A DNA stretch of 63,071 bases. It comes from Verrucomicrobiales bacterium (GTDB lineage Bacteria > Verrucomicrobiota > Verrucomicrobiia > Limisphaerales > JAFMIX01). The stretch is taken from the NCBI GenBank assembly GCA_031371425.1, contig JANMJO010000025.1, positions 1 to 63,071 of the forward strand, given 5' to 3'. Below, piece after piece: positions 5,380 through 31,898 of the stretch (position 1 is the stretch's first letter; the number at the start of each line of letters is the position of its first letter). The position numbers were made by a program, and so were the translations under genes. The notes beneath the pieces were generated by a model that was not told the DNA's origin, ran no database searches, and was given only the letters and a program-made list of their open reading frames with translations.

Positions 5380-8300
5380 TCATGGCCAGACGGCGCGATA
5401 GAACATTGGAGACGGCGGATTGGAGTCGTAGAAAATAATCTCCCCGCCCCCATCCGTGGTGCCGGAAGCCACTTCTGTCCAGACCACAGTGCCGGACAAA
5501 GAGGCGGTGCGTTGCAGGCGGTAGGTTGTTCCCGCCACGCCGTTCAGGGTGACGACGGCAAACTGATTGTCGCCGAACACCTGCGCCCCCATTTTCAAGG
5601 TGCAGTAAATATTCGGCACGGCCATGACGTGGATGGAAAACTGGTTCGTCGCGCTCGCGCCATCCGTGTCGGTGGCCACCACGCCGACCGGGTAATTCCC
5701 GATGGCGTTCGGTGTGCCACTGAATGCCCCAGAGATTGCGTCAAAGTTCAGCCACGCCGGCACTGCCAGACCCAAGTCCAAGCCCAGCGTCAGCGCATCT
5801 TCCACATCCGGGTCAGAGAATGTTCCCGCCGGCACCGTGTATGCCAGCGGCGTGCTCGGCGTGACCGTCTGATCCACGAGCGGAGTCACCACCAGCGGTG
5901 CGTTGTTGTATTTGAGGCGGAACATGTATGCCGTGCCGCCGCGCACGCCGGCATCCAGACCGTTGTAAGCGCCCGCCACCACCGTGCCGCGGTAGACGGC
6001 CACGCTGCAGCCAAAATTATCCGAGAAACCCACCGCCGCAGGCAGGAATTTATCTACCTGACCCCAGGTGTTACTGCCGCCCTGATGCTGTGCGAACAGA
6101 TACGCCGCACCGAAATCCGCCGAGCTGCCATCCGTGAGCGGCGCACCTACCACCAGCTTGTTCACACTCAACGCCAGCGCGAGGCCAAACCGATCCGAAA
6201 TCGCAGGAACGGGTGCGGTCAACTTCCTCAACTGACCCCAGACATTGCTGCCGCCCTGATTCTGCGAGAAAACATACGCCGCGCCCGCGTCGCCCAAGGT
6301 CGTGATGTCGGCCAACGGAGCGCCTACCGCGATGGTTTCTCCGCTGATGGCCACCGCGTTGCCGAAGTTATCTGCAGCCAGCCCGTCCGCCGAAGCCAGT
6401 TTTTTAACGAAACCCCATTGCTCCGCGCCATCCTGATTTCGGGAGAAAAGATACGCCGCACCCGCGTCACTGCGCCCCACAAAATCTGCCTGCGGCGAAC
6501 CGACCAGCACGTTCGTGCCGTCTGCTGCGACGGAGTAGCCGAAGTGGTCCGAACCAGCCGGGTCAGTTGAAACCAGTTTCTTCACCTGTCCCCAGAAATT
6601 ACTGCCGCCTTGATTCTGAATGAAAACAAACGCCGCGCCCGAATCGCTCGCCGGAGCATCCGCGAACGGCGCGCCCACCGAGATTACATTGCCACTGATG
6701 GAAACCGCCGAGCCGAACTGGTCGTTACCCGCGCCGCCTGTGGCCAGCAGCTTCTTCACGAAGCCCCATTGATCCGCGCCGCCTTGGTTGCGCGCGAAGA
6801 CGTAAGCCGAACCGGAGTTGACCCCGAATTCATCCGTGAACCGCGCGCCCACCACAATGGTATCCCCGCTGATTCCGACCGCATAACCAAACTCATCCGA
6901 GATATGGCCGTCCGCCGGCACCAACTTCTTGAACTGCGTCCATGTGTTTGAGCCGTCGAGACTGCGCGTGTAGAGATAGACCGCGCCGCCGCCCAAACCT
7001 GTCAAATCACGCGGCGCACCCACCACTGCGAGGTCGCGCGTCGTGGCGACGGACCAGCCGAACTGCGCGTTCGCCGTCCGGTCGCTCGCCGTCACCTTCG
7101 CCGTCAACGGATGAATCGCCACGACCGTCGTGTTCGAATCCACCACCGTCGGCGCAAAGAAATCATCCACGCGAATCGTGAACCGCGTCACCTCATTCGT
7201 GCCGGGCGCGACCCGGCTCGCCACCGTGGGCGTGAAGACCAGCCCGCGCAACGCCGTCGTCGCCTGCGCCGCCGTCACTGTCCCGTTCGAGACGCCATAC
7301 GAATACACGCCGCCGCCCAAGTCGCTGAAGCCGCCGAGTGTGGACAACGCGCCCTTCACTGCGCTGTCCAGCGTGACCGTGATGCGGAGCGCCTGTGTCT
7401 TGTCATTGTCCACTTCGGTGATGAGCGCGCTCACGAATGGCTTGATCGAGCTGTGGCTGTAAACCGTCTGCCCCGCGACCGTGCCGCTGATGACCGGCGC
7501 GTCATTCACCGCCGTCACCGCCACCGTCGTCAGGTTCGTCACGAATTGGAGGATGAAACCGTCGTCCACGAAGAGCGTCAGATGGTTCGTCTCCGTCGTC
7601 GGCACGCGGATGTGATTCGGCACGGGCGCGAAAACAATTCCGCGCAACGCCGCCGTAATGGCGGCCGGTGTTCCGTAAATTTCAAACTGCCCCGGTGCTG
7701 TCTGCGTGAAGCCGCCGAGACTCTGCAACGCGCCGTTGTCGAGATGATCCATCGAAATATAAACAGCCAGCGGTTGCACAGCGTCATCGTCCACATCGCC
7801 CACCGTGATCGTGGAGAACGGTTGCACGGTCTGCTTGTCGGTGATCGCGCGATTGAGATTGTTGGTGATGGTCGGGTCGTCGTTGACCGCCGTGATCGCC
7901 ACGGTCGTCACTGTGTCCGTCACCGTCGGCGCGAAGCCGTCGTTGACGGTGAGCGTCAGATGCGTCGTCTCGGTCGTCGGCACGATGATATGGTTCGGCG
8001 TCGGCACGAACACGATGCCGCGCAGCGCGGTGGTGAGGTTCGTAGGCGTGCCGGTCATGGTGAACAGATTGCTCGAGACTGCGGTGAAGCCGCCGAGGCT
8101 GGTCAGCGTCTGGTTGTCGAGATTGTCGAGCGCAATGGTCACGGTCTGCGACTGCAACGCGTCATCGTCCACGTCGGCGATGGTCACGCTGCCGAACGGA
8201 TGCGTGGTCTGCTTGTCGGTGATCGCGTAATTGGTCGTGCCGGTGATGGTCGGCGTGTCGTTGATTGCCGTCACGGCGACGGTCGTGATGGCATTCGTCA

Positions 8301-30893: not shown

Positions 30894-31898
30894 TTAGGGA
30901 GCAACCGTGCCAGTGACCGGCAACCAGACTTCCGCGCCGGAGTCCGTGGAGATTTTTAACAACGCCGTCTGCGCCGCATTGGACATTTTTTCGCGGCGCA
31001 ATTTCAGCCAGAGGTAACTCACCTGCCTCGCTTCAAGCGAGGGCAGCGTGTGCAACGCGGGCAAATCGAACGTCGCCGTATTCAAGGCGTTCGTCGAAAT
31101 CCCGCGCACGACGTAGGCGAGCGGCAATCCGCCGTCATGCGCAACTGTTTCCACTTTCACCGTGAGCGGATCGCCCGTCCGGTTTTCCAAGGTCACCGGC
31201 GACTCCGCTGAACTGCCAAATAACACACTGTCGCCGGTTGCGACTTTGACCGAGAGCGGGCCTTGATAATCCGACGCGCCCTTGCAATACACCCAGCACG
31301 ATTCACCCGCGCGCATCTGCTCCGTCGCGGGATTTGCAACGAGCGTCCACTGATCATTGATGAGGCGGTAGATTTTACCGGGCTGGTGCGCCGTTGAACC
31401 GGCAAAATATCTGCCGAACGTCGGCGCGGCTGCCGCATTCACGCCAAAGCCGCTGTAATTGAAAGAATCCGGCTTCCATTTCACCGTGCCCAACGCCACG
31501 GTGCCGGTAACCGTCCACATAAAATCAGACTCCGCGTATATCAGATAGCCGCGGTTGCCCTGTATGGCGAACAGCGTGGAGAGAAAATCGTCCTGTCGCG
31601 ATGGCGCATACCACACCGCCCAGCCATCGCGCTTCCAAGATATATTGCCGGGGTTTTGGATATACTGCACCGACGTATCGCCGCCAAAATAGACGCCGGC
31701 GATGGAGACCGGGGTGCTGGCGAAAACGGCCGTAGGACTCGCATTCGTGGGGGATACCTCGAGGAAGATTGCATTCCAGCCTTTATGGAGACTGATATTT
31801 TGGGTGCGAATCCCGCTTGCTCGAGCGGTGGTGACGGTGATGAAAACCAGGACGACGAAACTGATACTTTTCCAGAAAACTCCGTTTGTTCTATTCAT
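30894..31898 (-). CDS. Secreted or membrane-anchored 334-aa protein; unknown function; first gene of the giant operon
   Basis: ORF 30894..31994. The ATG at 31898 gives MNRTNGVFWKSISFVVLVFITVTTARASG, a signal or anchor. I recognise no motif. A 24-nt gap separates it from the next gene. Confidence 0.7.
   Translation of the reverse strand: MNRTNGVFWKSISFVVLVFITVTTARASGIRTQNISLHKGWNAIFLEVSPTNASPTAVFASTPVSIAGVYFGGDTSVQYIQNPGNISWKRDGWAVWYAPSRQDDFLSTLFAIQGNRGYLIYAESDFMWTVTGTVALGTVKWKPDSFNYSGFGVNAAAAPTFGRYFAGSTAHQPGKIYRLINDQWTLVANPATEQMRAGESCWVYCKGASDYQGPLSVKVATGDSVLFGSSAESPVTLENRTGDPLTVKVETVAHDGGLPLAYVVRGISTNALNTATFDLPALHTLPSLEARQVSYLWLKLRREKMSNAAQTALLKISTDSGAEVWLPVTGTVAP

Follow-up and report, generated by a model that had tools for sequence, protein, structure and literature searches.

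How do giant surface proteins of the Planctomycetes-Verrucomicrobia-Chlamydiae (PVC) group leave the periplasm when no recognisable outer membrane machinery accompanies them? This long-standing question is raised by a block of six genes, g1 to g6, on the minus strand of a 63,071-nucleotide stretch of DNA from a Verrucomicrobiales bacterium (contig JANMJO010000025.1 of assembly GCA_031371425.1); this whole stretch is called the window below. Together, the six genes encode ~8,800 aa of putatively exported protein, and the third of them, G3, defines the module (Table 1 gives all coordinates). A preliminary description of the locus had seen in it a self-contained surface module built largely of unassigned proteins. 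The best explanation overall, which we advance tentatively and hold to be somewhat less likely than not, is a Sec-dependent envelope operon with a core of g1, g2, G3 and a parvulin-type peptidyl-prolyl isomerase (PPIase; g5), the products of which would build a membrane-inserting complex resembling TcA of the toxin complex (Tc) family.

What kind of protein is G3? About 95% of it matches nothing in Pfam, NCBIfam, PHROGs or the sequences of the PDB; a PDB sequence search with G3 alone returned nothing, and one with a nine-sequence G3 profile returned PA14 structures and noise only. A lead came from an AlphaFold2 (AF2) model of residues 1960-3159, also built from nine sequences, in which an all-helical region is followed by a poorly structured stretch, by two long helices (92 and 158 residues) with a loop between them, and by a beta-rich domain. 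When this model was compared with the PDB by Foldseek, the top 18 matches were all TcA structures (TcdA1, XptA1/A2, TcdA4, TcaA-TcaB and YenTcA; E 5e-8 to 2e-4), and the next match was Rad50 (E 0.019). The model is of low confidence (predicted local distance difference test [pLDDT], 46.6) and was used as a lead only; the TcA idea was then tested by sequence. For this purpose, a 69-sequence alignment of the G3 core from related loci was compared by hhalign with a 40-sequence TcA alignment, the TcA set consisting of SepA of Serratia entomophila pADAP and 120 TcA homologues. Exactly one match was obtained. It pairs residues ~2576-2843 of G3 with residues 1914-2150 of SepA, which belong to the pore-forming domain, over 224 collinear columns (score 55.9, P 2.3e-4, probability 44%, identity 16%), and its score stands against 23 for the reversed TcA profile and 19-30 for twenty block-shuffled profiles. 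The aligned topology is that of a hairpin, with a descending helix, a tip loop, an ascending helix and a closing motif. The tip loop reads D-x-vPNIYG-x-A-x-GGSRYG in TcA and E-x-(L/I)P-x-x-(I/V)-x-G(L/F)A-x-GGD in the G3 proteins of the type B loci described below, and the closing motif reads IYYQFYDLxVSRCLMAQxAYQW in TcA and KYRxxFDLAARYAYLAAxAYDYE in G3.

Could so long a protein have matched by virtue of its length? A hidden Markov model (HMM) of the TcA hairpin, searched against the window and locus proteins (680 in all), placed G3 proteins in the top 7 positions and in 13 of the top 16 (best E 2.8e-4 and 4.4e-3), with alignments at the same positions as those of hhalign. HMMs made from six other TcA regions did not favour G3 among the proteins of the loci (all E > 0.3); since only the hairpin HMM prefers G3, its great length is not the cause. 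Four other G3 segments gave no hhalign signal with TcA, and neither did g1 or the C-terminal domain of g2. Nine segments from the C-terminal part of G3, searched against Pfam at E <= 10, yielded noise only and no TcA domain, and the ~315-residue beta-rich domain at the G3 C terminus has no detectable sequence similarity to the TcA C terminus, the comparison of folds being limited by the pLDDT of 46.6. In TcAs, the pore domain and the tip loops are the most conserved parts, and the shell and receptor-binding domains vary (PMC6795518). The pore domain is thus the part that would be expected to survive at the evolutionary distance of G3.

We consider it likely, from these profile comparisons, that the hairpin of G3 is truly homologous to that of TcA at a remote level. 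However, G3 should not be filed as a member of the TcA family. It has a TcA-type pore-forming hairpin and a TcA-like domain order, but it has none of the TcA Pfam domains and no TcB/TcC, and it carries a signal peptide and extra partners. The Pfam signatures of TcA are VRP1 (PF03538), ABC_toxin_N (PF20220), the neuraminidase-like domain (PF18413), TcA_RBD and TcA_TcB_BD (PF18276), most or all of which are present in each of the 120 listed TcA homologues. Instead of a firm assignment to a family whose export route is known, then, we have a partial match to TcA; the earlier view that g1, g2 and most of G3 are unassigned holds for g1, g2 and nearly all of G3, for which there is no curated family, and has to give way at the TcA-like C-terminal hairpin.

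The remainder of G3 falls into two parts. Distant homologues align only from residue ~1040 onward and have cadherin or ASH/HYDIN/NIDO domains in their N-terminal parts instead of the propeller repeats and the PA14 domain seen here. The part they share ends in a highly conserved domain (...DIKLxIxTYGYSGN at the very C terminus). Three further motifs, GYNPNEEHALLAP, LAEGWIKR and YPQGHGDAWGHYLTA, lie outside the TcA-like hairpin and are strongly conserved, each with a core that is invariant across phyla; they could be catalytic, metal binding or structural. The G3 homologues of all phyla have signal-type N termini. In the source annotations, the proteins of the module appear as “hypothetical” or “PA14 domain-containing.”

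Do the six genes form a single unit? All six minus-strand open reading frames (ORFs) were found where the preliminary description had placed them, and they are as tightly packed as it had claimed, with gaps of 24, 19, 21, 20 and 8 nt from g1 to g6 and ~300 nt of noncoding sequence on either side of the block. Third-position G+C is high in all six, as in real genes, and each product begins with a hydrophobic, signal-like N terminus when read by eye, in line with the claim that all of them bear a signal peptide or lipobox. The ORF of g1 can be extended to 31994, and its start at 31898 is backed by the lengths of its homologues (324-340 aa); an alternative TTG start at 16314 is possible for g6. 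Promoter and terminator scans at the ends of the operon were uninformative. The G+C content of g1, g2 and G3 (0.54-0.60) is lower than that of g4 to g6 and the flanking genes (0.61-0.63), which could reflect amino acid composition or a separate history of the core module.

Comparison with other genomes speaks to the same question. Full-length homologues of G3 occur at 55-93% identity in Limisphaerales-type metagenome-assembled genomes (MAGs), and distant ones occur at 32-45%. In the relative at 65% identity, the six genes keep their order (335/472/3157/881/316/3658 aa), and an equivalent order is found at 55% (337/361/3171/885/315/3786 aa); the block is therefore no chance juxtaposition, and the order recurs across Verrucomicrobiota/PVC genomes. 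How far does the module reach? One genome per GTDB species was scanned for two invariant G3 peptides, G[FY]NPN[ED]EH and [YF]PQGHGDA, and at least 573 relatives of G3 were confirmed among 185,579 species genomes. The carriers belong to at least five phyla and include Verrucomicrobiota, Kiritimatiellia, Lentisphaerae/Victivallales, Desulfobacterales, Geobacteraceae, Acidobacteriota/Thermoanaerobaculia and Gammaproteobacteria, the last represented by Marinicella, Wenzhouxiangella, Aquimonas and Lysobacterales. They are free-living environmental bacteria, several of them cultured strains (Pontiella sulfatireligans F21, Luteolibacter marinus, Haloferula sp. BvORR071, Marinicella spp. and Wenzhouxiangella sediminis).

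When the six window proteins were compared with 81 fetched loci, two arrangements emerged. Type A loci, in the PVC group, have the order g1, g2, G3, g4, PPIase, g6. Type B loci, found in Gammaproteobacteria, Acidobacteriota, Geobacteraceae and some Verrucomicrobiota, begin with a DUF11/lactonase repeat protein of at least 1,500 aa and continue with the PPIase, a fusion of g1 and g2 (~590-610 aa), and a G3 of ~2,780 aa; the position of g4 is then taken by a Calx-beta plus lactonase-propeller protein, the domains of which were assigned by Pfam on Marinicella sp. W31. The giant repeat proteins that flank the core are not homologous between the two types. Presence was counted in the 47 loci with both flanks visible. 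Of these, 44 have g1 and 44 have g2; 38 have the PPIase, which lies downstream of G3 in 28 cases and upstream of it in 10. Directly downstream of G3, 32 carry a g4-like gene, and 15 have a g6-like gene, a figure that is an underestimate, as loci end before the g6 position. A same-strand neighbour of at least 700 aa, other than g1 and g2, lies within 9 kb of the core in 39 of 43 loci. Clustering of all neighbouring ORFs brought out no further widely conserved partner, and the search for conserved neighbours gave regulators only (ECF-sigma-like proteins, a Ser/Thr kinase-WD40 protein and a response regulator), each in subsets of loci. The conserved core is thus g1, g2, G3 and the parvulin PPIase; g4 is mainly restricted to the PVC group and g6 to a subset of loci, and the adhesin-like giants are lineage-specific partners. 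The preliminary description had taken all six genes as the unit, which is right down to 55% identity, the broader unit being these four genes across at least five phyla. Its second point, that the PPIase sits specifically in front of the largest gene, does not generalise: in Gammaproteobacteria, Acidobacteriota and Geobacteraceae, it lies upstream of g1.

Some loci show features of their own. Two divergent copies of the module are present in some MAGs (loci L039 and L049, L045 and L066, and L042 and L057). In a subset of verrucomicrobial loci, a gene for an extracytoplasmic function (ECF)-sigma-like protein (~256 aa, Sigma70_r4_2) lies directly upstream of g1, beside a gene for a ~1,200-aa Ser/Thr kinase with WD40 propellers (L011, 1152-5541; L039, 3088-7537; L042, 2574-6962; L078, 17-4079), and the two look like a dedicated regulatory pair. 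Just upstream of g1 in the 65%-identity relative (L084, 6175-7110), there are two small, divergently oriented N_methyl (pilin/pseudopilin-type) genes, which are not seen in the window.

What might the smaller core proteins contribute? The g1, g2 and G3 core families are uncovered by Pfam, NCBIfam and PHROGs. The AF2 model of g1 (pLDDT 92.1, pTM 0.86) has a signal helix followed by all-beta, Ig-like sandwich domains, and Foldseek searches of the PDB and BFVD with it gave only single-domain MG, ASH/PapD-like and Ig matches (TM <= 0.25), with no known whole-protein architecture to match. As these matches are generic ones to single domains, identification of g1 as a chaperone-usher protein or an alpha-2-macroglobulin was rejected. 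An exhaustive profile search assembled the g1 family into 1,647 clusters at 50% identity, many of 555-630 aa, the size of the fused form. One listed homologue, P0141 (335 aa), aligns with 48% of g1 at 63% identity and has an HSP70 Pfam match (PF00012); it probably stems from a short contig that is chimeric or misassembled. The g2 protein is conserved at both ends, with an Ala-rich middle that differs in length between homologues, the whole protein measuring 268 to 1435 aa. Homologues of its C-terminal domain in 55 ORFs of the fetched loci share the motif HPxNPFxHxxHPDH, then GLHK, then LNQ at the C terminus; the motif, which is not in Pfam, could be a metal site or an interaction motif. Fusions of g1 and g2, mostly of ~580-730 aa, occur in Marinicella, Wenzhouxiangella, Geobacteraceae, Acidobacteriota and some Verrucomicrobiota. 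Because they are fused in several lineages, g1 and g2 can be taken to work together.

The fourth core protein, g5, matches Rotamase_2 of Pfam above the cut-off (E 1.6e-10) and SurA_N_3 weakly, and its best NCBIfam match is the PpiD model PRK10788 (E 8e-14; 51 bits, against an equivalog cut-off of 493). It has the rotamase domain, the SurA-type N-terminal region and the membrane tether that mark a predicted parvulin chaperone of the PpiD/PrsA/SurA kind. Its counterpart in Marinicella has a hydrophobic N terminus with no Cys there, possibly membrane anchoring. The gene is a dedicated, module-linked paralogue and not a housekeeping gene.

The two lineage-specific giants are built of modules of the adhesin type. 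Besides its cadherin and RTX segments, g4 has TSP3-like repeats, weak Calx-beta-like repeats and a C-terminal tail of ~100 aa ending FMRV; its similarity to the Marinicella protein downstream of G3 is of the Calx-beta type only and is not significant. An NCBIfam match of g4 to the “Amuc_1099 pilus-like” model was set aside (E 0.013, 32 residues, overlapping an Asp-rich, TSP3-like stretch). In g6, seven FG-GAP repeats, Big_9, Cadherin_4/5, tandem-95 repeats and VCBS were found, together with a domain typical of surface proteins (choice-of-anchor Q) and, at the C terminus, a tail ending FYRAVWP; homologues of g6 follow the PPIase in verrucomicrobial, Kiritimatiellia and Lentisphaerae loci. Most modules named beforehand were recovered, some of them weakly (PA14, Cadherin_3, RTX, Calx-beta, FG-GAP and the lamin-tail domain [LTD]), and so was the array of ~126-aa repeats; the parallel beta-helix had no direct family match. 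The C termini of g4 (17312-17635; ...KQFMRVHLQPR) and g6 (5383-5607; ...PMFYRAVWP) both consist of a domain of ~75-110 residues that closes with F[YM]R[VA], and this may be a shared tail, e.g., for sorting or anchoring.

Table 1. Positions of the six genes and of the features within them (all on the minus strand of the window)
Feature	Position	Strand	Description
g1	30894-31898	-	334 aa, predicted exported; core module member
g2	29463-30869	-	468 aa, predicted exported
g2 C-terminal domain	29466-29807	-	~115 residues, invariant; always C-terminal, directly upstream of G3
g2 motif HPTNPFxHRxHxDH	29691-29732	-	In the C-terminal domain; protein ends LNQ
G3 (g3)	19964-29443	-	3159 aa, predicted exported; defining gene of the module
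G3 variable N-terminal region	26327-29335	-	Residues 37-1039; SBBP-type propeller repeats and PA14
G3 PA14 domain	28307-28540	-	Pfam, weak; SBBP also weak
G3 conserved core	19967-26326	-	Residues 1040-3159 (~2,100 residues); from alignments
G3 core motif GYNPNEEHALLAP	25454-25492	-	From alignments
G3 core motif LAEGWIKR	23444-23473	-	From alignments
G3 core motif YPQGHGDAWGHYLTA	22820-22864	-	From alignments
G3 TcA-like pore-forming helical hairpin (probable)	20915-21718	-	Residues ~2576-2843; descending and ascending helices
G3 hairpin tip loop EFLPSDLPTAGLAFSPGDALAPARGA	21380-21457	-	Between descending and ascending helix
G3 hairpin closing motif KYRASFDLAARYAYLAATAYDFD	20924-20992	-	After ascending helix
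G3 C-terminal beta-rich domain	19967-20914	-	Residues 2844-3159; position of the TcB-binding funnel of TcA
g4	17309-19942	-	877 aa, predicted exported; Ca-binding repeat protein
g4 Cadherin_3	19019-19291	-	Pfam
g4 RTX beta-roll, T1SS-type segment	18398-18796	-	Internal, residues 383-515 of 877
g5	16317-17288	-	323 aa, parvulin-type PPIase; core module member
g5 lipobox LTAGC	17211-17225	-	Read from sequence
g5 rotamase domain	16506-16934	-	Pfam Rotamase_2/3
g6	5380-16308	-	3642 aa counted from ATG; predicted exported, adhesin-like giant; lineage-specific partner
g6 choice-of-anchor Q	12787-12963	-	NCBIfam/Pfam scans
g6 LTD-like region	12454-12783	-	Sub-threshold
g6 126-aa repeats	7816-8983	-	378-nt tandem DNA array
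g6 seven-blade FG-GAP propeller	5914-7074	-	Pfam

Is a secretion system encoded nearby? The likely coding ORFs of the rest of the window, a few short ones being left out, were scanned with Pfam, and among them there were no ABC/membrane fusion protein (MFP)/TolC, TpsB, secretin or usher genes and no holin/lysozyme lysis cassette. The lack of recognised secretion machinery in the window had been stated beforehand, and it extends to the 81 related loci, where none was recognised within 10 kb and where the clustered neighbour ORFs include no conserved transporter, outer membrane protein or secretin. Among the operon proteins themselves, Pfam and NCBIfam detected no barrel or POTRA family, no two-partner secretion (TPS) domain and no C-terminal beta-barrel in any of the six, and no model of the C-terminal sorting domain of the type IX secretion system (T9SS) in G3, g4 or g6; no TpsB was found in the neighbouring ORFs scanned. 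The block is flanked downstream by genes for LpxK, glycosyltransferases (GT9 and GT25) and a hexapeptide transferase and upstream by genes for a transketolase, an SDR protein, a GHMP kinase, a nucleotidyltransferase, a dehydratase and an epimerase. This placement between nucleotide-sugar and lipopolysaccharide (LPS) core genes had been pointed out beforehand. We reject it as functional context: neither relative, at 65% or 55% identity, shares these flanks or has genes of LPS or sugar metabolism beside the block, and a position that is not conserved is uninformative about function.

Farther out, the window encodes a PAS histidine kinase, ThiF, NrdR, a release factor (RF), ArgRS, Lon and KdsB. 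ORFs at 32200-32664 (154 aa, directly upstream of the operon), 39535-40899, 47608-48438, 49255-49791 and 51622-52572 have coding-type composition and no Pfam family. The lon gene is split over two frames (58217-60617, minus strand): ORF 58248-60617 covers the LON substrate-binding domain and the AAA module up to its middle, and the ORF that overlaps it, 58217-59431, aligns with Lon residues ~430-777 (E 2.5e-110), which points to a frameshift near 59.25 kb, from sequencing error or in a pseudogene.

How might these parts work together? The observations are compatible with a mechanism in which all six proteins would cross the inner membrane via Sec, as their N termini suggest, and in which the membrane-tethered, PpiD/PrsA-like parvulin, judged by what is known of PpiD, PrsA and SurA, would chaperone these very long chains as they emerge unfolded. 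G3 would then oligomerise, and g1 and g2 would be indispensable to it for assembly or structure, a role that we infer from the linkage and fusion observed. We speculate that G3 would drive its helical hairpins into a membrane as TcA does, and that the Ca-binding giants would be the partners of the complex, i.e., g4 and g6 here and the DUF11/lactonase/Calx-beta proteins in other phyla. If placed in the outer membrane of the producer, such a complex would export or anchor g4, g6 and the N-terminal modules of G3 and would represent an alpha-helical counterpart of an autotransporter. That the module forms a membrane-inserted oligomer strikes us as marginally more probable than that it does not; an export or anchor role at the cell's own outer membrane is possible rather than probable.

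The analogy with classical autotransporters (type Va), which is not one of homology, rests on Sec export, a variable N-terminal “passenger,” a conserved C-terminal membrane-inserting part, periplasmic chaperones of the SurA/PPIase type and the lack of a dedicated ATPase. The pores differ, that of autotransporters being a 12-stranded beta-barrel inserted by the beta-barrel assembly machinery (BAM) and the candidate in G3 being an alpha-helical hairpin within a 2,100-residue core, and the G3 module has three extra conserved proteins. In its most explicit form, the proposal would be that of an “inside-out Tc toxin,” a TcA-derived alpha-helical channel that would form in the periplasm, be fired into the outer membrane of the same cell, and serve to display the giant adhesins and the N-terminal modules of G3. 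In this full form we regard it as unlikely.

Several points weigh against a membrane-inserting, TcA-like complex. The main weakness is that the structural evidence comes from a poor model, which may mislead (pLDDT 46.6, TM ~0.1), and from one stretch of ~270 of the 3159 residues of G3, for which the hhalign probability is only 44% and in which the tip region is less hydrophobic than that of TcA. At E <= 0.1, the TcA Pfam domains are absent from G3, and tblastn with SepB and SepC (E <= 0.01) found no TcB/TcC in the window or the 81 loci. A complex of ~1.7 MDa would have to be assembled in the periplasm, and we know of no TcA-like channel that inserts into the outer membrane of its own producer. 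The roles given to g1 and g2 are purely inferential, and the presumed single-operon status is read from gene layout and synteny.

Would the hairpins instead be aimed at another cell? The alternative that survives best, although we think it somewhat unlikely, is a released Tc-like toxin or translocator, with G3 as a syringe directed against protist grazers, invertebrates or bacterial prey. The lectin/propeller modules at the N terminus of G3 would then bind receptors, the particle would carry g1, g2, g4 and g6 as decorations, much as YenTc carries chitinases, and release would occur by vesicles or lysis. The only known function of a TcA hairpin is, after all, the perforation of target membranes (PMC6795518), and variation of the N-terminal modules between lineages, two divergent copies in some MAGs and a free-living environmental habit would all suit a toxin. 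The TcAs (TcdA1, XptA1/A2, TcdA4, TcaA-TcaB, YenA1/A2 and SepA), which form pentameric, bell-shaped prepores with a stretched linker and a trefoil knot, are, like G3, giants (~2,400-3,200 aa) whose peripheral binding part varies and whose C-terminal translocation part is conserved, the hairpin being preceded by a helical region and followed by a beta-rich domain. However, TcA Pfam domains and TcB/TcC belong to those systems and are missing from the G3 locus, and neither the window nor the 81 loci yielded a TcB/TcC or RHS cargo carrier. TcA has no signal peptide and is released by a lysis cassette (type X secretion system, T10SS), sepA on pADAP sitting behind a holin/lysozyme cassette, whereas every component here has a Sec-type signal and the window has no such cassette; since the proteins bear signal peptides, the lysis route of TcA is unsuited to the G3 module. 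Tc loci lack the obligate partners g1, g2 and parvulin, the near-universal presence of a periplasmic chaperone in the module is hard to square with a released toxin, and no outer membrane route is evident for a megadalton particle. The hosts differ as well, being insect or human pathogens for TcA and environmental PVC bacteria, Acidobacteriota, Desulfobacterota and nonenteric Gammaproteobacteria for G3. Given the periplasmic delivery, the lack of a lysis cassette or a TcB/TcC carrier, and the size of a pentamer (~1.7 MDa), we slightly favour the producer's own outer membrane as the target over a released toxin.

Could the block be an ordinary giant-adhesin operon with a folding helper, exported by machinery encoded elsewhere, such as a type II or type I secretion system (T2SS or T1SS) or similar, its likeness to TcA being a convergence of amphipathic hairpins? 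All of the named modules are indeed of adhesin types, the resemblance to TcA covers a single helical segment (16% identity, hhalign probability 44%), and the structural model is of low confidence. A comparable setting has been described in Omnitrophota, where giant genes adjoin a T2SS-like locus and a conserved Rotamase_2 PPIase (West-Roberts et al., bioRxiv 10.1101/2023.11.21.568195). Set side by side by description, with no homology shown, those loci and this operon both encode giant, mostly unannotated surface proteins of PVC-group bacteria beside a PPIase, but the Omnitrophota loci include over 10 genes of a T2SS/type IV pilus (T4P)-like system, and SecA-like and transmembrane regions occur in their giants; this operon has no such features. 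A limited search of the literature turned up this parallel and the standard Tc papers but no earlier account of the module. T1SS-exported RTX adhesins (LapA, SiiE and MpIBP) share with g4 and g6 their Ca-binding modules (cadherin-like, Big_9, tandem-95, VCBS, Calx-beta and RTX nonapeptides). Unlike g4 and g6, they have no Sec signal, a C-terminal RTX block with a secretion signal, and adjacent ABC/MFP/TolC genes; the internal RTX block and Sec-type N terminus of g4 do not fit a T1SS, and no T1SS genes occur in the window or related loci. Nor is convergence an easy account of a TcA match that is collinear over 224 columns, includes two specific motifs, lies far above all reversed and shuffled controls, and is independently recovered by a plain HMM search in the hairpin region only; a 2,100-residue core with motifs invariant across phyla is likewise unlike adhesins built of repeats. 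We therefore hold an adhesin operon of this kind to be decidedly unlikely.

An envelope scaffold that spans the periplasm or tethers the outer membrane, setting geometry or anchoring a surface layer with no transport, would agree with the periplasmic direction of all parts, with the spacer- or ruler-like variation of g2 between its conserved ends (268-1435 aa), with the envelope polysaccharide genes that adjoin some loci (this window, and GT4 and Wzy at L001) and with the ECF-sigma-like and Ser/Thr kinase genes upstream in some verrucomicrobial loci, but it is highly improbable, as the flanking envelope genes are not conserved, the lectin-type N-terminal modules of G3 suggest external ligands, and the module is distributed patchily, no phylum having it throughout, which speaks against a basic role in the envelope.

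What would a Sec-dependent, TcA-like membrane-inserting complex mean for these organisms? Three widespread families (g1, g2 and the G3 core), uncovered by Pfam and NCBIfam, have been defined, and cultured carriers make experiments on them possible. Tc translocators are being engineered as protein delivery devices, and a divergent natural Tc-like branch may be useful for such work. If the link to TcA is true, the injection principle of Tc would extend beyond a few insect and human pathogens, and a large, ancient, Sec-dependent branch with no TcB/TcC would exist in abundant soil, freshwater and marine bacteria. A self-directed export device, if true, would be categorically new, and it would offer a hypothesis for how giant PVC surface proteins leave the periplasm without recognisable outer membrane machinery.

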